Under the pieces are notes generated by a model. The model searched no databases. It was not told where the DNA came from and saw only the letters and a program-made list of their open reading frames with translations. A stretch of DNA of 64,000 bases from assembly GCA_001784435.1 (NCBI GenBank), contig MFQZ01000008.1:23347-87346 (forward strand), read 5' to 3'. Shown in pieces: positions 45,462-56,523 of this stretch. Source of the DNA: Candidatus Magasanikbacteria bacterium RIFOXYC2_FULL_42_28 (GTDB lineage Bacteria > Patescibacteriota > Patescibacteriia > Magasanikbacterales > GWA2-37-8). The position numbers and the translations under genes were made by a program. Each line of letters begins with the position of its first letter. Position 1 is the stretch's first letter.

Positions 45462-46310
45462 CTACGTACGACGATGCAAAACCAGAATCAGGTCATCTTT
45501 GGCAAAATATTTTCTGGTAAAACCCATGACCCACCCAATGACCCAATTCTGTGTCGTTTTGTCATACACGAGACATTCGCACAAATACCCTTGATAGGGG
45601 TGCCAATGGCCAGTCAGCAAATAGTAATTTTGCAGGTTGGTCGGAATTTCCGACTGACCTTCCAACACGAACATAATATCCTTCCCCGAGGGTAAGTCAG
45701 TCACTTCAGCCAGCATCTCTTTCGGAGTCATGGGCATCTTGTCAAACGAACCACCAACGACTTCATACCGCCTTCCCTCAACCGAGAATTCAACCCGAAC
45801 AGGTTCTACAGCCACCTCTTTCAGTGGCAACGGAATTGGCACCTTATTGAGTCGATGCACTACAAGAACGCTCCCCCACTGCCGCATGATCTCGCCGTTC
45901 GCGAAAAACTGCACAGCGTCTCGACCGCTTTGTGGAAAATAGCCACGAGGAATTCGTTCTATCCTACGATTCCACCTTGACCCCTCCCAAGTAAAGTACA
46001 CACTGTACCCGGGGTCTTCTTCATCCCTTGAGTTGGTCAACAGTTTGGAACAGTAGCGCAAAACAGATGGCAGCTGATCCAAACGATCAGCCAAAAACTT
46101 GCAATCCTCGTCTCCGATCCCCACGGAGTTCAAAGTAGACACCAAGACAGAAAGATCAATGTAGGTCGGTCCTTCTACCAACCCGCCCATGGCCTCATAC
46201 CATCGTCCTTCAACCTCAAACTGGATCGTTTTGGTATTGCCTTTTCTAACTGCTTTAGCACCTTTAGTCGTTGTTTTTGCCTTCATTACAGCATCTCCTC
46301 CCGTTTTCAA
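45462..46310 (-). CDS. hypothetical protein with an internal duplication and locally elevated GC
   Basis: two similar modules (IQFEVEGRWYEAMGGLVEGP / VRVEFSVEGRRYEVVGGSFD); no recognisable family. Confidence 0.3.
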   Translation of the reverse strand: MKTGGDAVMKAKTTTKGAKAVRKGNTKTIQFEVEGRWYEAMGGLVEGPTYIDLSVLVSTLNSVGIGDEDCKFLADRLDQLPSVLRYCSKLLTNSRDEEDPGYSVYFTWEGSRWNRRIERIPRGYFPQSGRDAVQFFANGEIMRQWGSVLVVHRLNKVPIPLPLKEVAVEPVRVEFSVEGRRYEVVGGSFDKMPMTPKEMLAEVTDLPSGKDIMFVLEGQSEIPTNLQNYYLLTGHWHPYQGYLCECLVYDKTTQNWVIGWVMGFTRKYFAKDDLILVLHRRT

Positions 46311-46662: not shown

Positions 46663-47397
46663 ATGTCCGACACTACTCTTAATTTAGCTCTACAAAACCT
46701 CGGTCTAGATGACAAAGAAGCCAAAATCTATTTGGCGCTTTTGGAATTAGGCAAAGGCACTGTCGCCGATGTTGCTAAACAGTCCGGCGTCAAACGCACG
46801 AACATTTACAATTTTATCGGTCCGATGAAAGACAAACATATCATCGGTGAAATAATACAGGACAAACAAATTATTCTTATCCCCGAAAATCCCCAAGCCC
46901 TAATCAAACGCGCCGAACAAAATTTTGTTGACATCAAAAATCTTTTACCAAATTTATTATCCATTTTTAACACCCCCGAATCAAAACCAAAAGTAAAATT
47001 TTTTGACGGGGCGCAAGGAATTAAAAACGCTTGGGATGATATGACCACGAGTGGTGAAAATATTTACGGTTTTTCTGACTATGAAAAAATGTTTGGCGTT
47101 TTTCCAGATGATTGGCTCGGGCAAATACCTAAAACCCGCGCGCAGAACAAACAATTTTATTATTGTATTGCCAAAGACGGTCCCTGGGGCAAAAAAATTA
47201 AATCCAGAGACAAAAAACAATTGCGCCAAACCAAATTAGTCAAAAATTTAAATTTAGACACCGAAATAAACATTTACGGCGGAAAAGTTTTGCTAATAAG
47301 TTTCCGCAAACCGTATTCCGCGATTATAATAGAAGAAAGAGCCATTGCCATGTCGTTAAAATCAATTTGGCAATTGATTTGGGATGGGTTGAAGTAG
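46663..47397 (+). CDS. TrmB-family transcriptional regulator (second copy)
   Basis: DDKEAKIYLALLELGKGTVADVAKQSGVKRTNIYNFI wHTH. Confidence 0.5.
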   Translation: MSDTTLNLALQNLGLDDKEAKIYLALLELGKGTVADVAKQSGVKRTNIYNFIGPMKDKHIIGEIIQDKQIILIPENPQALIKRAEQNFVDIKNLLPNLLSIFNTPESKPKVKFFDGAQGIKNAWDDMTTSGENIYGFSDYEKMFGVFPDDWLGQIPKTRAQNKQFYYCIAKDGPWGKKIKSRDKKQLRQTKLVKNLNLDTEINIYGGKVLLISFRKPYSAIIIEERAIAMSLKSIWQLIWDGLK

Positions 47398-47569: not shown

Positions 47570-49915
47570 GTGTCTCGTCCTCGTCGCATGATCCACTACC
47601 AAAAACGCCCGGCCGCGCCGCGTTTTAATCTTAATCCCGAATTAAACAACGGCATTATTGCGGTTTTGCTTTTTATTTTGGCTGGCATTGCCACTTTGAG
47701 TTTTTTCCAAATGGCCGGCGTGCTCGGACAATTTGTGGATTCATTTTTGGCATTGCTGTTTGGCCAAGTACGCTACTGCGTCCCCTTGGTTTTAATCACC
47801 GCTTCCATCTTACTCGTCAAAGACATTGAATATAACTATCGCCACACCCACTCGGTCGGCGCGATTTTATTTTTCTTAAGTTTCAACGGCCTCGTGCATT
47901 TACAATATCCGCTTGCCGATATGGCCTCAACGGCGCAACAAGGTTACGGTGGCGGTATGATTGGCTTTGCCCTCGCCTGGGTAATGGCCTCGTATGTTGG
48001 CTATTGGGGCGGGATGTTAATTTTAATCGGACTTTTGATTGTCTCACTCATATTTTTGTTCAACACCACGCTCGCGCAAATGGTGGAAATTCACAAAAAA
48101 TTATTTTTAACTTTGGGCTGGCTCGGACGCGAGATTGTTGCGTTTTTTGGCAGTTTTAAAAACCCGTCTTCGCCTTGGGCTACGCCGGGTAAACCCGTAA
48201 AATTTGCTATCAAGGGTGATTATGAAAATCAAACTCAACCCGAAGATAATATTAACGAAACCGATGGCGAAGAAGAGCGCGTCTTTAAACAAAAATCGAT
48301 TGCTCAAACTGACGACACCGACGAAACAGAAGAAGAACCAGCCGAAGCCGAACCGGAAGAGGAAAAAGTGGTGGGCGTGCCTCAAGCCGTTATTCGCGAT
48401 TTACCAAATTTAGATTTATTATTCACCTCCAAATCCAAACCATCGGCCGGTGATATCAAAGGCAATGCCGAGACCATTAAAAGCACTTTGAAAAATTTTG
48501 GCATTGAAGTAGAAATGGGTGAGGTGCGCGTTGGTCCGACGGTAACGCAATATTCTTTCAAACCAGCGGCCGGCATTAAATTAACCCGCATCACTACTTT
48601 ATCAAATGATTTAGCGCTCGCTTTGGCCGCCCACCCAATTCGTATTGAAGCGCCAATTCCAGGCCAAAGTTTAGTCGGCGTGGAAGTTCCCAACCAAAAA
48701 GTGGCGATGGTAACACTGCGCGAATTATTAGAATCTGAAGAATTTACCAAACGCCCGCACAACATGATGATCGCGTTAGGCAAAGATGTCGCCGGTAAAG
48801 TTTGGTGGACGGACTTATTAAAAATGCCCCACCTACTCGTCGCCGGCGCCACTGGTTCAGGCAAAACCGTTTGTATCAATGCGATTATCACCAGTCTACT
48901 TTATCAAAATACCGCCGAAACTTTGCGCTTTATAATGGTAGACCCTAAACGGGTGGAGTTGACGCTCTACGACGGCATCCCCCATTTATTAACGCCGGCA
49001 ATAACCACTCCGGCCAAATGTGTGAACGCGCTAAAATGGACTATCAACGAAATGGAACGCCGTTTTGATGTTTTAGCCAAAGCCGGCAAACGCGATATTG
49101 CTTCTTTTAATAAATCCTCGTCCGAACCACTTCCATATATAGTATTTGTCATTGACGAATTAGCGGACTTAATGTCCCAAGCCAGCGCCGAAGTGGAAGC
49201 CGGAATAATTCGCATTGCCCAAATGGCGCGCGCGGTCGGTATTCATTTAATTGTCGCCACCCAACGCCCGAGTGTGGAAGTGATTACCGGTTTAATGAAA
49301 GCCAATATCCCCGGGCGCATCGCCTTTTCGGTGGCTTCAATTATTGATTCGCGCACAATTTTAGATTGCCCGGGCGCGGAAAAATTATTAGGCCGCGGCG
49401 ATATGTTGCTCCTGACCGCTGACATGTCTAAACCAAAACGCGTACAAGGCGCGTTTATTTCCGAAGAAGAAATTGATCATGTAGTGGAACATTTGAAAGG
49501 CGACGAACCACCCACTTACGACGACGCGATTGTGGCCAAAGGCGATAACAGTGGCGGCACCTTAAATATGTTTACCGGTGGCACCGATGACCAAGACGCG
49601 TTATTTGATGATGCCAAAAGATGTGTAATTGAAAGTGGCAAAGCATCCGCTTCATTATTACAACGTCGCTTAAAAGTGGGCTACGCCCGCGCCGCGAGAT
49701 TATTAGATGAATTAGAAAATGCCGGCATCGTCGGGCCCGCTGACGGCGCCAAACCGCGCGAGGTGTTTACCGAACATATTGGCAATGGACACCATATGCC
49801 CGCGCCCGAAGCCGAAATTCCGGCGGACGAGCAGACGATGGATTTGGGTGGGGTGGTGTTGGATGATAATAAACCGAAAGAATCAGAAGCCGAAGAAGAA
49901 CCACCAACACAATAA
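47570..49915 (+). CDS. ftsK: DNA translocase FtsK/SpoIIIE
   Basis: N-terminal TM segments, linker, Walker A VAGATGSGKT, Walker B, C-terminal gamma wHTH. Confidence 0.9.
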   Translation: MSRPRRMIHYQKRPAAPRFNLNPELNNGIIAVLLFILAGIATLSFFQMAGVLGQFVDSFLALLFGQVRYCVPLVLITASILLVKDIEYNYRHTHSVGAILFFLSFNGLVHLQYPLADMASTAQQGYGGGMIGFALAWVMASYVGYWGGMLILIGLLIVSLIFLFNTTLAQMVEIHKKLFLTLGWLGREIVAFFGSFKNPSSPWATPGKPVKFAIKGDYENQTQPEDNINETDGEEERVFKQKSIAQTDDTDETEEEPAEAEPEEEKVVGVPQAVIRDLPNLDLLFTSKSKPSAGDIKGNAETIKSTLKNFGIEVEMGEVRVGPTVTQYSFKPAAGIKLTRITTLSNDLALALAAHPIRIEAPIPGQSLVGVEVPNQKVAMVTLRELLESEEFTKRPHNMMIALGKDVAGKVWWTDLLKMPHLLVAGATGSGKTVCINAIITSLLYQNTAETLRFIMVDPKRVELTLYDGIPHLLTPAITTPAKCVNALKWTINEMERRFDVLAKAGKRDIASFNKSSSEPLPYIVFVIDELADLMSQASAEVEAGIIRIAQMARAVGIHLIVATQRPSVEVITGLMKANIPGRIAFSVASIIDSRTILDCPGAEKLLGRGDMLLLTADMSKPKRVQGAFISEEEIDHVVEHLKGDEPPTYDDAIVAKGDNSGGTLNMFTGGTDDQDALFDDAKRCVIESGKASASLLQRRLKVGYARAARLLDELENAGIVGPADGAKPREVFTEHIGNGHHMPAPEAEIPADEQTMDLGGVVLDDNKPKESEAEEEPPTQ

Positions 49916-50350
49916 ACTGTCTCGCTGTCTTTCCCCTCCTTTTCAAGGAGGGGACCAAGGGGCGGTTCACTCACCAACAAAAAAATATCCGCCTCACAGC
50001 GAATATTTTTATTATAGAAGCAAAACCACCCTCGCCAAAATTAAACTATTTTAATTCTAACGAGGTAGGGGTGGTCTTGCGATGTTCTGTAAGTCCGCCC
50101 ATACCTTTTCTTCGTCATTTTTTGTCCTCACCCTCTTGATCGTTGGCGCCCTCACTTCTCAACGACTCTGCGTAGTCGTTGTCGGACTGTAGCTTTTCCA
50201 ACTGTTCTTTTTCATCTTCTTCTTTTGTTTTTTTTGACTTCTTTTTGAAATCGGACGACATTCGCCCTCCTTTTGCCAGAGAGTGATTTCTCGGTCTCGG
50301 AAACTCTAACAAATAACTCTCTCTCTCTGTCAAATATCCCCCCCCCCCCA

Positions 50351-50393
50351 CGCTTAGCGTGGGTTATGGGACGCTTAGCGACAACGCTTAGCG
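50351..50393. promoter_or_regulatory. three copies of the 9-bp palindrome CGCTTAGCG (50351-50359, 50372-50380, 50385-50393), candidate operator sites, directly after a C12 tract (50338-50349)
   Basis: seen directly. Confidence 0.45.
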
Positions 50394-50398
50394 TCCCC

Positions 50399-50427
50399 TT
50401 GACAAAACCACCAAGATAGTATATAAT
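50399..50427 (+). promoter_or_regulatory. perfect consensus sigma70 promoter TTGACA-17-TATAAT, with its -10 only about 12 nt before the ATG of 50440 (near-leaderless transcript)
   Basis: TTGACA at 50399-50404 and TATAAT at 50422-50427. Confidence 0.5.
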
Positions 50428-50439
50428 ATACTATATACT

Positions 50440-51210
50440 ATGTATTCCGACACCAAACAACAAATCCTTAATATCATTAAGGAAAACAACGGCACCAGCC
50501 CCCACTCTCTTATTACCACCCTAAACAAAAACGCCTCGGGAATTTTTCGCCATCTAAAAAAATTAATTGAAACCAGCCAAATCACCAAGGTTGGCAAACC
50601 GCCAAAAGTGGTGTATTATTACTCTGCTAATAAAAATAATATGAACGAAAATCAAACTGCCGGTGACAAAATTTTAAACTGGGCGACTACCGGCAACACT
50701 ACCACAGTCCAACCGAATTGGACTTGTCAAACGCGCGATGTTTTTCAAGCCCGGCACGATCGTTTGTTAAATGAATTAAAAAAGAAATTCAGCGAAAATG
50801 TTGCTTTCACCGTTGCCGCGATTACCGGCGAAATCGGCAATAATTCCTTTGACCATAATTTGGGAAATTGGCGTGATGTAATGGGAGTAGTATTTGAAAT
50901 TAATTTGGAAAAACGTGAAATTATTTTAGCTGACCGTGGCCAAGGGATACTGGCGTCAATTAGACGTGTGCGCCCCCAAACGACCGATGACGCCGATGCG
51001 CTCCAAGTCGCGTTTACCGAAGTAATTTCCGGACGATTCCCCGAACAGCGCGGCAATGGCCTAAAATATGTCGCCAAAAATATCAAAGCCAATAATTTTT
51101 CCCTAAAATTTTATTCTGGCAATTCCAGCTGTGAAATTATCGATAATCAAATGACAATTAAAAAAACTAATCAACTAACTCCGGGAACATTGGCAATCAT
51201 TAACTTCTAA
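50440..51210 (+). CDS. wHTH plus GHKL-type ATPase (RsbW/SpoIIAB-like serine-kinase/anti-sigma-factor fold) protein
   Basis: N-terminal wHTH; N-box ITGEIGNNSFDH, G1 DRGQGI, G2 GNGLKYV. Confidence 0.5.
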   Translation: MYSDTKQQILNIIKENNGTSPHSLITTLNKNASGIFRHLKKLIETSQITKVGKPPKVVYYYSANKNNMNENQTAGDKILNWATTGNTTTVQPNWTCQTRDVFQARHDRLLNELKKKFSENVAFTVAAITGEIGNNSFDHNLGNWRDVMGVVFEINLEKREIILADRGQGILASIRRVRPQTTDDADALQVAFTEVISGRFPEQRGNGLKYVAKNIKANNFSLKFYSGNSSCEIIDNQMTIKKTNQLTPGTLAIINF

Positions 51211-51213
51211 AAT

Positions 51214-51483
51214 ATGCGTATTGAATTAAAAAAATTTGGCAACAATCTATCCTCCCGCCCAGCTGGCAAAGAGGCCTATTTGAGCGCGCGCGCCTATATC
51301 TTGCCCAAGGATAAAAACGAAAAAGTAGAAATTGATTTTACCGGCGTAGATGTTTTGACCCCATCTTGGGCCGACGAATTTTTAACACCAATTAAAAAAG
51401 AATTCGGTGATAATTTGGTTTTGTTACCATCGAATAATGTGACAATTAAATCAACTTTGGAATTTTTGGAGGAGATTAAATAA
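51214..51483 (+). CDS. small STAS-like (anti-sigma-antagonist-like, DUF4325-type) protein, probable partner of the upstream ATPase
   Basis: IDFTGVDVLTPSWADEFL resembles the STAS core; 89 aa; 3-nt intergenic gap. Confidence 0.4.
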   Translation: MRIELKKFGNNLSSRPAGKEAYLSARAYILPKDKNEKVEIDFTGVDVLTPSWADEFLTPIKKEFGDNLVLLPSNNVTIKSTLEFLEEIK

Positions 51484-51500
51484 TACCACCCAAAAATTTC

Positions 51501-52172
51501 ATGTCCATCTTCTGCATAAAAAAATTAGAACCGCCGGAATCAGTGGGAGCGCGCTTAAAACGCAAACGCGCGGAATTAGGCGAACACCTTACGGCCATAT
51601 CCGCGCGCATTGGCGTAGCGGAAAATCATTTGACCGCGCTGGAAACCGGCCACCACCGCGAACTCCCCTTAACTATCGCCCATCGCTCGGCTTATTTAAA
51701 AAAATACGCGACCGCGCTCGGATTAAACCCGGACATGCTCTGGAAACAATTTGTCCAAGAGGGCGGAACCGCTGATATCAAAACCGGCCATCCGGCCCAA
51801 GCGTTAAAAAATATTCGCTTTGATTCTTTGGCCTCGCTTATTCGCAACCTCGGCATCGCTACGCTCGTAATTATTTTCGCCGGCTATTTAATTTGGCAAA
51901 TTCGCGGAATTTTAACTCCGCCACTCCTCGTTGTATACACGCCGATGGAAGGCACCGTTACCAGCCACACGAGCATCGTCGTGCAAGGCATAACCGACAA
52001 AGAAGCGCACCTATCCATCAACGGCAAAGATATTATGATCGACGAAGACGGAAAATTTTCCGTAGAAATTTCCTTAGCCCCCGGCGTTAATTCCATTACG
52101 ATAACCACCATAAAAAAACACGGCAAAACGACCACAGTCGCGCGCCATGTGGTGGTAAAAGAGAAAAAATAG
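51501..52172 (+). CDS. RodZ-like HTH (XRE) plus single-TM membrane protein
   Basis: N-terminal XRE-type HTH, central TM (IATLVIIFAGYLIW), C-terminal beta domain. Confidence 0.45.
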   Translation: MSIFCIKKLEPPESVGARLKRKRAELGEHLTAISARIGVAENHLTALETGHHRELPLTIAHRSAYLKKYATALGLNPDMLWKQFVQEGGTADIKTGHPAQALKNIRFDSLASLIRNLGIATLVIIFAGYLIWQIRGILTPPLLVVYTPMEGTVTSHTSIVVQGITDKEAHLSINGKDIMIDEDGKFSVEISLAPGVNSITITTIKKHGKTTTVARHVVVKEKK

Positions 52173-52284
52173 CCCCCAGTTTTATCCACTTGCGTAATAT
52201 TGCCCGTTTGATTATAATACCCGAACTAATATCCGCCAGAGGCGGACCAGCCTGTGGCTGGAACTAATCCATAATATAAACTCT

Positions 52285-53346
52285 ATGCCCAAAGTAAGCG
52301 AAGAAGTAAAAAACAAATTAAAAGCCGCCGAAGCCGCCATTGAACAAATTAAGGCCAAATTTGGCGAAGGTGCCATTATGACCTTTGGCGATAGTAAAGC
52401 GATGGATATAGACACGGTTTCTACCGGTTGTTTATCAGTTGACCTAGCACTTGGCGTTGGCGGTGCGCCCCGTGGTCGTATTATGGAGGTTTATGGACCA
52501 GAAAGTTCTGGTAAAACAACATTAGCGCTCCATACTATCTCCGAAGTCCAAAAATTAGGTGGGATTGCGGCGTTTGTGGACGCTGAACACGCTTTTGATC
52601 CGGACTATGCTCGCAAAATCGGTTTAAAAGTGGAAGAACTTTTAATGTCCCAACCCGACACTGGCGAACAGGCCTTGGATATCGTGGAAACACTGGTGCG
52701 CTCTAACGCCGTGGATATTATTGTCGTGGACTCGGTGGCCGCGCTCGTGCCCAGAGCTGAAATCGAAGGCGACATGGGCGACAGTCATATGGGTTTGCAA
52801 GCACGTTTAATGAGCCAAGCCCTACGCAAATTAACCGGCATTATTTCCAAATCAAAAACCATTTTGGTTTTCATTAACCAAACCCGCATGAAAATCGGCA
52901 TTGTCTATGGCAACCCCGAAACCACTACCGGTGGCACGGCTTTGAAATTTTATTCAAGTATCAGAATCGAAGTTCGTCGCGCCGCCCAAATTAAACAAGG
53001 TGACAAAGTTATTGGCAATCGCGTCAAAGTCAAAGTTGTCAAAAACAAAGTCGCCGCCCCGTTCCGCACCACGGAATTTGATATTATGTATAACGAAGGC
53101 ATTTCCATTTCCGGCGATGTACTAGACACCGGCGCAATCTATCAAGTAATTTCCAAACGTGGCAACACCTATGCCTATGGCGAAGAAAAATTAGGCGTCG
53201 GAAGAGAAGCAGCCAAAAAATTCTTAAAAGATAACCCCAAATTATTAAAAGAAATTTCAACCAAAGTAAAAGAGGTAGTCGCGCGTGGCGAAGCGCCGGA
53301 AGAAGAAGCCCCGATTGAGGAAGCGCCGTTGCCGGAGGAGGAATAG
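52285..53346 (+). CDS. recA: recombinase RecA
   Basis: full RecA core ([19 protein letters not shown], ...) with an acidic C-terminal tail. Confidence 0.95.
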
Positions 53347-53530: not shown

Positions 53531-54586
53531 CTAACCAACCACATAAGAAGTCGACTTGCCCTTGCCGGTCGCCTTAATCATTTTAAGTTTTTTTAATTTT
53601 TGCAATTGCAACTGCGCTGATCGACGCGGACAAGATAAAATATCTTCCGCATCGGCAACGGTAATCCGGCCGACCTGATCCAAGAAATCAATAATTTTTA
53701 ACTGTTCCGGCGAAAGATAAATTTGTGATTTTATTTTACCAGCAACATTACGAGCGGACAATGGCAACACCTTACTCTTCACCTCATCAATTTCCGCTTT
53801 AAATCCTTTTACAAAATATTCCAACCAAGAAGTGAGGTCAGTACGCCTGGCTTCATAAGTTTTACCTAAATTAATCGCTTTATAATATGACGATCGGTCG
53901 GTATTATAATAATCCTCCAAGGCAAACAATCGCCGAAAGTCATACCCGCGCTGATAAAGTATTAAGGTCGCCAAAGCGCGCGCGGTACGCCCATTACCAT
54001 CGTTAAATGGATGAATAGCGGCAAGCTCCATATGAGCAACGGCCGCCACAATCACCGGGCTTATTTCCTTCTCCTCACTGTCTTTAATCCAAGTAACAAA
54101 TTCTGCCATAAGTTGCGGTACTCGCTTTGCCTCCGGCCCGGTATATAAAATTTCTTGTGGCATGCCCAAACGCCGACGCACCACATAAATCGGGCCGGGA
54201 CGATAATGGCCGGAAAACTGTGAATTTAATGTTTTATCAGTCACTAATTTATGCATTTTTAAAATCACTTTTTCCGTTATTAGCTGTTTTTCGGCCACTA
54301 TTTTTTCAATAAATTTCAAAACATTTAAATAATTTTTTACTTCATAAATATCTCGATCCGGCGCGTCAATTTTCTTGTTAGCATAAAGCGCCTCCACCTG
54401 CACCATATTCAGTTGGTTCCCTTCAATTTCAGTGGAATGATGGGTCATACGGATAATCGCTTGCCGGCGTAATTTTATTTCTTGTTGCGGTAAAATTTTA
54501 GCACGATCAATAATGCCTTTGGCTTCGGCGATAGCAGTAAGGTCGCTCAAAATCTTGTCGGTATATTTAAATATTGGAGTAAACAT
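53531..54586 (-). CDS. Fic-family protein with a C-terminal wHTH
   Basis: Fic motif HPFNDGNGRTAR. Confidence 0.75.
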   Translation of the reverse strand: MFTPIFKYTDKILSDLTAIAEAKGIIDRAKILPQQEIKLRRQAIIRMTHHSTEIEGNQLNMVQVEALYANKKIDAPDRDIYEVKNYLNVLKFIEKIVAEKQLITEKVILKMHKLVTDKTLNSQFSGHYRPGPIYVVRRRLGMPQEILYTGPEAKRVPQLMAEFVTWIKDSEEKEISPVIVAAVAHMELAAIHPFNDGNGRTARALATLILYQRGYDFRRLFALEDYYNTDRSSYYKAINLGKTYEARRTDLTSWLEYFVKGFKAEIDEVKSKVLPLSARNVAGKIKSQIYLSPEQLKIIDFLDQVGRITVADAEDILSCPRRSAQLQLQKLKKLKMIKATGKGKSTSYVVG

Positions 54587-54684
54587 ATGATTTGTATTAT
54601 TTTATAACTACACCAGTATTATAGCATAAAATTACGATTCGCGCAAGATTCGCGCAACAATCGCGCAAAACTTTATGAAGTTTT

Positions 54685-54713
54685 AAAAAACCGTCACAAT
54701 CGTGACGGTTTTT
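54685..54713. terminator. terminator repeat copy 2 (AAAAAACCGTCACAATCGTGACGGTTTTT)
   Basis: seen directly. Confidence 0.5.
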
Positions 54714-54743
54714 AATAACAAACCAATAATCTCTATACTGAAT

Positions 54744-55037
54744 TTATCGCCAAAGATAATTGGCGATACCATTTTCTTCATCCTCTCTCTTCTTGTTATA
54801 TTCAGCAAAATGAATATTTTTCTTTAACTCATCTTGCCAATCCTCTGGTAATTGATCCCAATTATCAAGAAGGTGGCCGGCGGCGTCCCATTCTACGATA
54901 GTGTTATTTCCGCCTTCCACAAAAAATAATCCAGCCACTTGGCCAGCCCAGTCCTTCAATGCTCCACTTAATGGTGGATAATTTTTTTCTTTCTCCACCG
55001 ACGGTTGTGCTACCCCTGGTTGCGGTCGTTTATCCAT
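54744..55037 (-). CDS. hypothetical small protein (Trp/Asp-rich)
   Basis: ORF only. Confidence 0.3.
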   Translation of the reverse strand: MDKRPQPGVAQPSVEKEKNYPPLSGALKDWAGQVAGLFFVEGGNNTIVEWDAAGHLLDNWDQLPEDWQDELKKNIHFAEYNKKREDEENGIANYLWR

Positions 55038-55085
55038 ATTTTTTATATTAAAAATAAAATTGCTTTTGATTAATACTATTATTCT

Positions 55086-55652
55086 TTATTTAGGCTCAGT
55101 AGCCAACAGCAGATTTTCCATATAGAACCCGCCTGGCCAATGAGTACTTTCACCATCATCGTCAACGGGAATTATTTTTGTCTCTTCAATCTGATTTTTT
55201 AATCTATTGTGAGGCAATGCTGATGTTGAAACAACGAATACTATATCTTCTGCCTTATTTTTACCTCTTCTCACCCGACCGTACGCATCGCGGGCCATTG
55301 GCTCTGATCTAGTTACGACAACACATGGTGTCTCACCCTCCATGAGCTCGCTATTTAAAAATGCTTGACCAACGGGAGAAAGGGAAACTTCTGGGTAAAC
55401 CATTATTTTTGTTCCCTGCCCCCTCCATTCGGCAATTTGCTTGGCTAATGCCAACCGGCCTGACCCATCGCCGTGTATCTGGAGCACCTTCCAACCACTG
55501 GGAAGTTCGTCAAAATTCAATTCTGGAGCTTGTTCTTGTCCCTCTTTTAATAAATAAGCCTGAAAATTTTCAGCTGTATTATCTATTAAAGTATCCAAAC
55601 TCAGAATTTCCGGCTGTGGTTCGCCACGTATTTTCCCTTCGCTTATTGTCAT
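55086..55652 (-). CDS. hypothetical protein expressed from a poly-C-containing repeat promoter
   Basis: ORF; no recognisable family. Confidence 0.35.
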   Translation of the reverse strand: MTISEGKIRGEPQPEILSLDTLIDNTAENFQAYLLKEGQEQAPELNFDELPSGWKVLQIHGDGSGRLALAKQIAEWRGQGTKIMVYPEVSLSPVGQAFLNSELMEGETPCVVVTRSEPMARDAYGRVRRGKNKAEDIVFVVSTSALPHNRLKNQIEETKIIPVDDDGESTHWPGGFYMENLLLATEPK

Positions 55653-55734
55653 ATATTTTTTAAATTAAAAATAAATTTTTCCCTATTAAGTATACCCCCC
55701 CCCCAACCGCTTTTGGCAAATTAGTTATCCACAG
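55653..55734 (-). promoter_or_regulatory. 82-bp repeat copy 1, read in minus orientation: DnaA box TGTGGATAA, -35 TTGCCA, G10 tract in the spacer, -10 TATACT, AT-rich leader, ATG
   Basis: near-identical to 57723-57804; C-run at 55695-55704. Confidence 0.5.
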
Positions 55735-55809
55735 ATCGCCACCCTTTGGGCTATGACCTTTTTGCAAGGCAGGGCAACCAAAGAGTGAAAAAAATATAAA
55801 AACAGCCGT

Positions 55810-56523
55810 TTAATTTAACACCGATAGATAATTTTTTAACAAAAACACGACCTCCGCGCGCAAATGATTTTTAACCCACGCTTTTTCTTTTTCACTTGGT
55901 AAAAGCTCGGCCAATCCGTGTAAAATTTCATTGTCTTTGACGGCCGCAATTACCGCGATACAATCAGCCAAATGTTCTTTGACGGTTTTGTCGGTTCTGG
56001 CTCGAAGCACATCGGTATTAATATCCCAATTATTTTTAGCAAAAAACCAAATATCGTAAATATCGCGCACTGCCAATGTTTTTCTATCAGTCAAAGCCGC
56101 CAGTTTACTCGCAAATAGATAATCTTGCTTGCCAACCAGCATCGAAATTCCCAAATAATCTTTCAATTCGTAATGTTCTTTAATATTAGGCATTAAAATT
56201 CTAACATTCACTTCAATTTTGACATTGTGGTCAGTGTCGCCATAAGAAAGTAGAAAAAAAACAGTATTTCGTTTGATATAACTATCCTTGACCTCCCCAT
56301 ATTTTCTAAGCATACCGCCAATTTTTTCCGATACCAATTTTTGCGTGGGCTCATCAGTAATAAATAAATCAAAATCCAAATCCACCGAAAATCTGCCCAG
56401 GGCATAAAAAAAATATATACAGGTTCCACCTTTAAATCCGATGAGCGATGAAATGGAAGTGTCGGAATAAATATCACGCAGAATCTGTCCCATGATAAGT
56501 TGATGTTTTTCTTTATTGAGCAT
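55810..56523 (-). CDS. AbiEii-family (DUF1814) nucleotidyltransferase toxin
   Basis: FKGGTCIYFFYALGRFSVDLDFD matches the AbiEii N-terminal signature. Confidence 0.6.
   Translation of the reverse strand: MLNKEKHQLIMGQILRDIYSDTSISSLIGFKGGTCIYFFYALGRFSVDLDFDLFITDEPTQKLVSEKIGGMLRKYGEVKDSYIKRNTVFFLLSYGDTDHNVKIEVNVRILMPNIKEHYELKDYLGISMLVGKQDYLFASKLAALTDRKTLAVRDIYDIWFFAKNNWDINTDVLRARTDKTVKEHLADCIAVIAAVKDNEILHGLAELLPSEKEKAWVKNHLRAEVVFLLKNYLSVLN

Follow-up and report, generated by a model that had tools for sequence, protein, structure and literature searches.

Partner-switching pairs such as SpoIIAB-SpoIIAA and RsbW-RsbV, in which Ser58 of SpoIIAA and Ser56 of RsbV are the phosphorylated residues, and two-gene type II toxin-antitoxin operons such as HipBA, a kinase toxin with a helix-turn-helix (HTH) antitoxin, are the described systems with which the locus reported here is best compared. 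Bacteria of the Candidate Phyla Radiation (CPR, or Patescibacteria) make up a large share of bacterial diversity with genomes of ∼1 Mb, and to our knowledge almost none of their regulation has been characterized. Here, we analyse a pair of adjoining genes encoding a winged HTH (wHTH)-GHKL protein and a small DUF4325/STAS-like protein, located in a 64-kb stretch of Candidatus Magasanikbacteria (CPR/Patescibacteria) DNA, hereafter the window (64 000 nucleotides). With moderate confidence, we read this pair as an autoregulated, ATP-dependent, partner-switch-like two-gene regulator in which a fused DNA-binding domain takes the place of a sigma factor. Newly described is a CPR-wide, uncharacterized pair in which swapping of the DNA-binding domain is matched by the promoter repeats; our search of the literature on this pair, on DUF4325 (PF14213) STAS-like proteins with an ATPase and on partner switching in CPR found no study of the pair. 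The two genes are:

50440-51210, + strand: wHTH-GHKL gene, 256 amino acids (aa), from the list of open reading frames (ORFs), Pfam, alignments and an AlphaFold2 (AF2) model
51214-51483, + strand: DUF4325/STAS-like gene, 89 aa, from Pfam DUF4325

The two ORFs are separated by only 3 nucleotides (nt; junction TAA-AAT-ATG), and their products are 100% identical to the hypothetical proteins A3J93_02555 and A3J93_02560 of Candidatus Magasanikbacteria bacterium RIFOXYC2_FULL_42. Chance-ORF status is excluded for both, since the large protein has 3499 homologue clusters and the small one 364 (best E 1e-166 and 1e-51, respectively), and a small-protein profile search of 1.84 billion cluster representatives gave 335 clusters. 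Scanning one genome per GTDB species revealed relatives of the pair in at least 563 species genomes, and the named matches among those listed were Patescibacteria throughout (Magasanik-, Uhr-, Buchanan-, Falkow-, Moran-, Colwell-, Roizman-, Gottesman-, Woese-, Levy- and Amesbacteria). An earlier note on this DNA, made from the letters alone, had treated the two genes as a pair, and this is confirmed by their co-occurrence in other genomes: in 82 of 82 fetched loci, as in the window, a DUF4325 gene lies directly 3′ of the GHKL gene on the same strand, at a distance of −37 to +124 nt, a 4-nt overlap being common.

The large protein is organized as follows:

∼aa 4-61, nt 50449-50622: wHTH
aa 62-73: low-confidence linker, disordered at aa 64-69 in the AF2 model
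W81 and C96-T-R-D-V-F-Q-A-R105: conserved helices preceding the domain
∼aa 95-256, nt 50722-51207: GHKL domain
aa 130-140, nt 50827-50859: N box, E131-x3-N135 in GEIGNNSFDHN
aa 165-169, nt 50932-50946: G1 box, D165-R-G-Q-G169
aa 192-209, nt 51013-51066: lid/G2, G205-N-G207-L in SGRxPExRGNGLK

Pfam HTH_24 was matched at aa 4-44 (E 8.8e-6, above the cut-off), and alignments of 36 full-length orthologues and 43 GHKL-only sequences revealed that the N box, G1 and lid/G2 are invariant, with E131, N135, D165, G167, G169, G205 and G207 as the invariant residues. A wHTH joined to a GHKL ATPase with N, G1 and G2 boxes, as read earlier from the letters, is therefore upheld. The AF2 model of the protein (mean predicted local distance difference test (pLDDT) 87, predicted template-modelling (TM) score 0.76) consists of the wHTH, the linker, two long helices and an alpha/beta sandwich, and the GHKL domain as modelled is a Bergerat alpha/beta sandwich fold. 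Using this model, Foldseek retrieved Hsp90 N-domains in the PDB (E ∼3e-4, probability 0.9-1.0) and also phage RIIA/Hsp90-like GHKL proteins.

The same domain had previously been labelled 'RsbW/SpoIIAB-type'. The GHKL fold part of this label stands, whereas the type rests on sub-threshold HATPase_c_2 matches and on the domain architecture. None of the Pfam HATPase models matches the window protein, and the gathering score of the family hidden Markov model is not reached by it. HATPase_c_2 (PF13581) matched 12 of 43 orthologues, all below the cut-off of 27.4 bits (best E 8.6e-4), and was the sole ATPase family to recur in orthologues, HATPase_c being the other one matched. SpoIIAB and RsbW were not retrieved in a profile search of PDB sequences, and phmmer and profile searches of PDB sequences with both proteins yielded no GHKL or STAS relative; the top matches were chance ones (triosephosphate isomerase, cofilin and ParM), and only wHTH/Z-alpha sequences matched the N-terminus. 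Likewise, hhalign aligned the family profiles with hand-entered SpoIIAB, RsbW and SpoIIAA sequences over the G1-box region only, and nothing was significant.

The Hsp90 N-domains and phage RIIA/Hsp90-like proteins as best structural matches, together with DNA-metabolism genes (ftsK, recA, holA and polA) near the pair in some loci, would fit a non-kinase GHKL ATPase that acts on DNA or proteins as an Hsp90-, MORC- or MutL-like clamp or chaperone, is recruited by its HTH and uses the small protein as a cofactor. GHKL ATPases of the MutL, GyrB, MORC and Hsp90 type, however, need a transducer or middle domain for hydrolysis, whereas the GHKL part of the window protein is, as in SpoIIAB and RsbW, a single domain of ∼160 aa without a transducer or middle domain, the model ending with the Bergerat fold. 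Furthermore, the sequence-level family matches are to HATPase_c_2 and HATPase_c only, and the GHKL domain is tied to STAS-type partners and fusions. We consider this explanation very unlikely.

The small protein was matched by DUF4325 (PF14213), described as STAS-like, at aa 29-67 with 35.1 bits against a cut-off of 23, in agreement with the DUF4325-like 89-aa protein 3 nt downstream that the earlier note had recognized. DUF4325 alone was above threshold, and Pfam STAS (PF01740 or PF13466) was not matched. The AF2 model (pLDDT 96) shows the element order beta1-beta2-alpha1-beta3-alpha2-beta4-alpha3, and its best geometric matches were STAS proteins (RsbS, TM 0.52; a stressosome chain, 0.58; TM1442, 0.54). 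The STAS fold that had been proposed is weakly suggested by element order and best TM matches, but no Foldseek match was significant. Two motifs are invariant, L12-x-S14-R-P-x-G18-K-E-A and L48-x-P50-S51-W52-A-D-E55-F; P50, S51, W52 and E55 were found in 82 of 82 small proteins paired with a GHKL gene and S14 in 80 of 82, so that a phosphorylatable Ser, for which the earlier note had suggested a search, is indeed present:

51364-51366, + strand: S51 codon TCT of the small protein

In the AF2 model helix alpha2 extends over residues 50-67, with S51 second from its N-terminus, a position which we take to be that of SpoIIAA Ser58 and RsbV Ser56. The equivalence to SpoIIAA Ser58 is topological only, because hhalign shows no sequence relationship, and Ser51 is a plausible phosphorylation site. 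Two wHTH-DUF4325 fusions without GHKL (P0327 and P0348) have G or E at the S51 position; a metagenome scan for P0327 gave no match. Across CPR classes the small protein is more conserved than the GHKL protein (55-80% versus 45-64% identity).

The conserved core of the large protein is the GHKL domain behind the W...C-x-T-R-D-V-F-Q-A-R helix, and its N-terminus differs by lineage, giving four classes:

28 loci, Magasanik- and Uhrbacteria: HTH_24 wHTH class
33 loci, mostly Microgenomates: MerR/HTH_17 class
3 loci: ArsR-type wHTH class
17 loci, Parcubacteria groups: class without a DNA-binding domain, ∼191 aa

In the window, the promoter region of the pair contains the following elements:

50399-50427, + strand: promoter, −35 box TTGACA (50399-50404), 17-nt spacer, −10 box TATAAT (50422-50427)
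50416-50441, no strand: candidate operator, inverted half-sites over the −10 box, the likely transcription start and the start codon
50416-50424: half-site ATAGTATAT, facing the inverted ATATACTAT copies
50426-50434 and 50433-50441: half-sites ATATACTAT, the second running into the start codon

The promoter is a perfect sigma-70-type promoter with a 12/12 consensus match, and CTTGACAA together with a −10-like box recurs at the equivalent place in wHTH-class orthologues. As the ATG is located only 12 nt past the −10 box, the mRNA of the pair is probably leaderless or nearly leaderless. The half-sites include a perfect 9+1+9 inverted repeat, ATAGTATAT-A-ATATACTAT, at 50416-50434, and 50416-50441 is the sole half-site cluster in the window. 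The wHTH-class half-site was defined from the window alone and then tested at the other loci, requiring at least two copies with at most one mismatch within the promoter zone. ATAGTATAT-type half-sites were detected in 23 of 27 other wHTH-class loci, in 1 of 33 MerR-class loci and in none of the 17 loci without a DNA-binding domain, and their density in the wHTH class was 21.6 per kb in promoter zones versus 0.37 per kb elsewhere. MerR-class promoters carry three direct TGCATAGAT repeats, extending from the −35 box across the spacer and recurring past the −10 box, which were found in 27 of 32 MerR-class and 0 of 28 wHTH-class loci (17.5 per kb versus 0.13 per kb elsewhere), and two ArsR-class promoters have spacer palindromes of their own. 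Since the type of DNA-binding domain covaries with the promoter repeat in intergenic DNA that is otherwise unalignable, the comparison argues strongly for binding of the fused domain to its own promoter, which the wHTH-GHKL protein probably represses.

In ∼0.68 Mb of flanking sequence and the window, only one second convincing site cluster was detected (L023, 34-66). As almost no sites occur outside the own promoters, the transcriptional output of the module looks mainly autoregulatory. In a single-cell genome labelled Elusimicrobiota, the L023 cluster (CATAGTTTATAGTTTATTATAAACTATAAACTATG) precedes the pair by 6 kb and may mark a second regulated promoter.

Three further observations concern the wHTH and the DNA ahead of the pair. 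Among PDB sequences the wHTH profile matched the Z-alpha domains of PKZ and ADAR1 best (E 3e-5), Pfam z-alpha matched 11 of 36 orthologues of the large protein, and the candidate operator is an AT-rich sequence of alternating purine-pyrimidine. A Z-DNA-binding role was rejected, the contact residues N173/Y177/W195 being I35/L39/V57 in a hand alignment with ADAR1 numbering. Secondly, a palindrome is repeated upstream of the promoter:

50350-50394, no strand: three copies of the palindrome ACGCTTAGCG(T/A), at 50350, 50371 and 50384, abutting the −35 box

These copies are preceded by a C12 run (window 50338-50394), the first lies within a perfect 8+1+8 palindrome CCCACGCTTAGCGTGGG, and the other two make up an inverted repeat of 13 nt. 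Exact copies of ACGCTTAGCG(T/A) were found neither elsewhere in the window nor in 86 fetched loci; they may or may not belong to the module and could be another regulator's site or an insertion scar. Thirdly, the GC-rich ACGCTTAGCGT repeats were dismissed as a conserved operator, as they are missing from all other loci.

No sigma factor is adjacent to the pair, as had been stated before: none of the scanned window neighbours and none of 6 Pfam-annotated CPR contexts gave a sigma70-family match. This bears on a classical anti-sigma kinase and antagonist with the sigma factor encoded elsewhere and the wHTH serving for feedback only. Such a pair would agree with the weak HATPase_c_2-type matches of the GHKL domain, with the STAS-like partner and its conserved Ser, and with the name 'anti-sigma regulatory factor (Ser/Thr protein kinase)' given by JGI to relatives. 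Besides the lack of a sigma factor in these contexts, however, no neighbour family recurs across the 82 loci, and three different DNA-binding domains were acquired repeatedly, which suggests that the bound partner is DNA and not sigma. We therefore regard the anti-sigma explanation as highly improbable.

The pair itself is the only conserved feature, no other neighbour being conserved across the 82 loci, and the annotated CPR contexts (n = 6) include housekeeping neighbours such as trigger factor, H+-PPase, YchF, S20, holA, polA and type IV pilus genes. The neighbours in the window are:

47570-49915: FtsK gene
51501-52172: RodZ-like HTH_25 gene
52285-53346: RecA gene

These neighbours had been named correctly, but the weight given to this setting is not justified as it is not conserved. 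In L021 and L005 the ftsK-rodZ-recA block is unbroken and the pair flanks it, on a different side in each, and the window pair thus sits inside a block that is uninterrupted elsewhere; at most loci the block is missing. A functional link to ftsK/rodZ/recA was consequently rejected. The lack of a sigma factor in the 6 annotated CPR contexts, the lack of a conserved neighbour and the class-specific promoter repeats agree with the earlier idea that the pair could be a regulatory or conflict module complete in itself and not a sigma-factor switch.

Several side observations were made in the surroundings of the pair. The gap from the small gene to the RodZ-like gene is 17 nt and that from the RodZ-like gene to recA 112 nt, and a scan of 51210-52400 found no + strand terminator; owing to these short gaps and the absence of a detected terminator, the autoregulated promoter may read through into the rodZ-like gene and recA in this genome. 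In 5 of 82 other loci recA is found at most 6 kb from the pair, versus ∼1 expected by chance. In the RodZ-like protein, HTH_25 at the N-terminus is followed by a predicted membrane segment and, at the C-terminus, by a beta-sandwich of the Glucodextran_B type (E 1e-13), which also weakly matches the CPR pilus protein PamR (NCBIfam NF058578, E 2.6e-3). On the other side, a 282-aa ORF without a family match (45462-46310, − strand) is apparently duplicated internally, one copy ('FEVEGRWYEAMGGLVEGPT...') being close to the N-terminus and the other ('FSVEGRRYEVVGGSFDKMP...') within the second half. TrmB-family wHTH regulators recur beside the pair in wHTH-class loci (12 matches, 9 loci), and in L091 the end of the DUF4325 gene and the TrmB gene overlap, as would be expected of a shared operon:

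Window, 46663-47397: TrmB-family regulator
L091, 7031-7756: TrmB-family regulator
L092, 7103-9484: TrmB-family regulator
L093, 5176-5928 and 7889-8635: TrmB-family regulators

Just past recA, a defence-like islet occupies 53531-56523 on the − strand of the window:

53531-54586, − strand: Fic protein, PADLOC SoFic match (E 9e-55)
54744-55037 and 55086-55652, − strand: two unannotated ORFs between Fic and AbiEii
55810-56523, − strand: AbiEii nucleotidyltransferase toxin (PADLOC E 5e-64)

Relatives outside CPR show the same parts in other arrangements. PHROG phrog_3364 matches aa 98-251 of the large protein (E 5e-13). Gp32 of Gordonia phage Phishy, which is annotated as 'histidine kinase' and whose gene is flanked by tail genes and the integrase, has a Pfam STAS domain (aa 19-85, above cut-off) and, in addition, a GHKL domain of the same clade as that of the large protein (hhalign probability 93%). 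With its N-terminus, one PADLOC DrmA model matches gp32 (E 1e-9), and the large protein of the window gives a weak match to it (E 2.4e-3); PADLOC gave nothing for the small protein. In P0300 the C-terminus of a GHKL protein is fused to DUF4325. Separately, P0267, P0289 and P0364 (321-330 aa) were seen to have an N-terminal DUF4325 with S51 kept, a Cys/His-rich segment and an SLT lytic transglycosylase. Among 2.9 million IMG/VR contigs, a CPR-type relative was found on a single one, at the contig end beside a serine integrase.

Furthermore, a recurrent cassette made up of a DUF4325 protein, a 115-aa protein, DUF4417 and a 270-aa GHKL protein was found outside CPR, on Aminobacter and Planctomyces plasmids and on proteobacterial chromosomes:

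L085, 2565-5474: cassette
L083, 4041-7082: cassette
L087, 4906-7819: cassette
L088, 4883-7807: cassette
L089, 3652-7789: cassette

A search of plasmids with the small protein by tblastn gave marginal matches only, of which the Planctomyces one is a real DUF4325 cassette. The translated DUF4325 protein of the cassette ends in a sequence that looks wHTH-like by eye, and the GHKL protein, which matches HATPase_c_2 and belongs to the same clade by hhalign (probability 95%, E 5e-8), is the relative that carries the JGI anti-sigma label. The cassettes lie beside Hma (HmaC E 2e-93), MmeI-type enzymes, SNF2 with a methylase, GmrSD or prophage genes; PADLOC matched none of the four cassette proteins, and the cassette is a candidate regulator or member of defence islands. 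As DNA-binding, GHKL and STAS-type parts recur in several permutations, they presumably act as one switch.

These neighbourhoods raise the question of a toxin-antitoxin-like or anti-phage module, with a GHKL effector, a STAS-like neutralizer and a fused DNA-binding domain that autorepresses, as such cassettes typically do. The bicistronic operon with its frequent 4-nt overlap, an operator over the own promoter with almost no sites elsewhere, and a lack of conserved neighbours with a position that varies even around the ftsK-rodZ-recA block would all suit such a module, as would SoFic and AbiEii 2-5 kb downstream in the window, AbiEii upstream in L001, and the association of non-CPR relatives with Hma, MmeI, GmrSD and SNF2, a phage moron position and the DrmA N-terminus. 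In addition, DUF4325 is reported to be transcriptionally coupled to a VapC PIN group (PMC5499597), the sole functional remark on DUF4325 that we found. Neither protein, however, convincingly matches a PADLOC model, no toxic domain is obvious, viral contigs hold next to no relatives, and the small protein is, at 55-80% identity across CPR classes, unusually conserved for an antitoxin. That the DNA-binding class roughly tracks taxonomy and that the annotated CPR neighbours are housekeeping genes would both fit a resident regulator, and we judge a toxin-antitoxin or conflict function to be unlikely.

The regulator that we favour is built on the linkage of the two genes, the intact ATP-binding motifs, the Bergerat fold, the covariation of DNA-binding domain and promoter repeat, the invariance of Ser51 and the fusions among relatives. 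The wHTH-GHKL protein, probably a dimer, would repress the near-consensus promoter of the pair by occupying the inverted ATAGTATAT/ATATACTAT half-sites that cover the −10 box and transcription start of its own gene. The C-terminal stand-alone GHKL domain would bind ATP and the co-translated STAS-like protein, which it would most likely phosphorylate on Ser51 at the N-terminus of helix alpha2. The nucleotide and phosphorylation state of the resulting complex would then set the grip of the DNA-binding domain on the operator, and might also control a non-transcriptional target. DNA binding and repression, a physical GHKL/STAS-like complex, phosphotransfer, and the physiological signal and output are thus all predicted steps, among which autoregulation and the complex are the well-supported ones.

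Several points weigh against this proposal. The top structural matches of the GHKL domain are Hsp90-type ATPases and not kinases. For the small protein, the STAS fold is without statistical support (best Foldseek E 0.39), hhalign of its family against a hand-entered SpoIIAA sequence showed no relationship, and the match of S51 to SpoIIAA Ser58 is positional, the kinase role being a predicted one. Neither a PP2C phosphatase nor another input component was seen near the pair. The ∼191-aa class has no DNA-binding domain and neither has its partner, from which it follows that control of transcription cannot be the core function, and the own promoter as sole DNA target would leave the real output unexplained.

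A wider version of the proposal, which we put forward tentatively and consider rather unlikely, is a CPR-wide 'one-piece partner switch', in which a GHKL Ser kinase with its own DNA-binding domain would read the energy or host-association state via ATP/ADP and phosphorylation of a minimal STAS-like protein. It would be one of the main signalling devices of CPR organisms, whose regulators are very few, and its phage, plasmid and DrmA cousins would be the same sensor recruited to defence control. The module is kept across CPR classes at 45-80% identity, with a predicted operator, candidate phospho-Ser and ATP site, and these predictions can be checked with recombinant proteins, without culturing CPR organisms. 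If the proposal is true, a DNA-binding domain attached covalently can stand in for the sigma factor in the logic of partner switching. The analysis also links DUF4325 and an unannotated GHKL clade to phage STAS-GHKL fusions and to cassettes beside Hma and MmeI, which suggests a broader, unstudied family of ATP-dependent switch modules.

Like SpoIIAB-SpoIIAA and RsbW-RsbV, the pair has a GHKL domain (∼150 aa, with the N, G1 and G2 boxes) that stands alone and, next to it, a small alpha/beta partner whose helix 2 has a conserved Ser at its N-terminus; co-transcription is tight and the similarity to HATPase_c_2 weak. Unlike SpoIIAB and RsbW, the kinase-like protein of CPR carries a fused wHTH, MerR or ArsR domain and has no sigma target nearby; its partner is, in contrast to SpoIIAA and RsbV, a DUF4325 and not a Pfam STAS protein, and is shorter (89 aa). 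The CPR pair also differs in having no linked PP2C phosphatase, in sequence similarity below family thresholds and in a family that is confined to CPR at this level of similarity. Phishy gp32 and phrog_3364 belong to the same GHKL clade, including the lid motif FT-x-x-SG...RG-x-GL, and share the STAS-type association, but gp32 has a true Pfam STAS domain fused N-terminally in one polypeptide, has no DNA-binding domain, and is a temperate-phage gene with tail genes and an integrase as neighbours. The proteobacterial and planctomycete cassette resembles the CPR pair in its GHKL clade, in a DUF4325 that keeps T-x-S-[FW] and in a wHTH-like sequence (by eye), which is, however, located on the DUF4325 protein (∼189 aa) and not on the GHKL protein (∼270 aa); moreover, the cassette contains two extra genes and resides on plasmids or islands beside Hma, MmeI, GmrSD or SNF2 defence or restriction genes. 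With type II toxin-antitoxin systems such as HipBA the pair has in common bicistronic overlapping genes, a palindromic operator on the own promoter and a variable position. In contrast to HipBA-type operons, its DNA-binding domain is on the enzyme and not on the small partner, and it differs from type II systems in general in the very strong conservation of the small partner, in its lineage-wide distribution and in its housekeeping neighbours.

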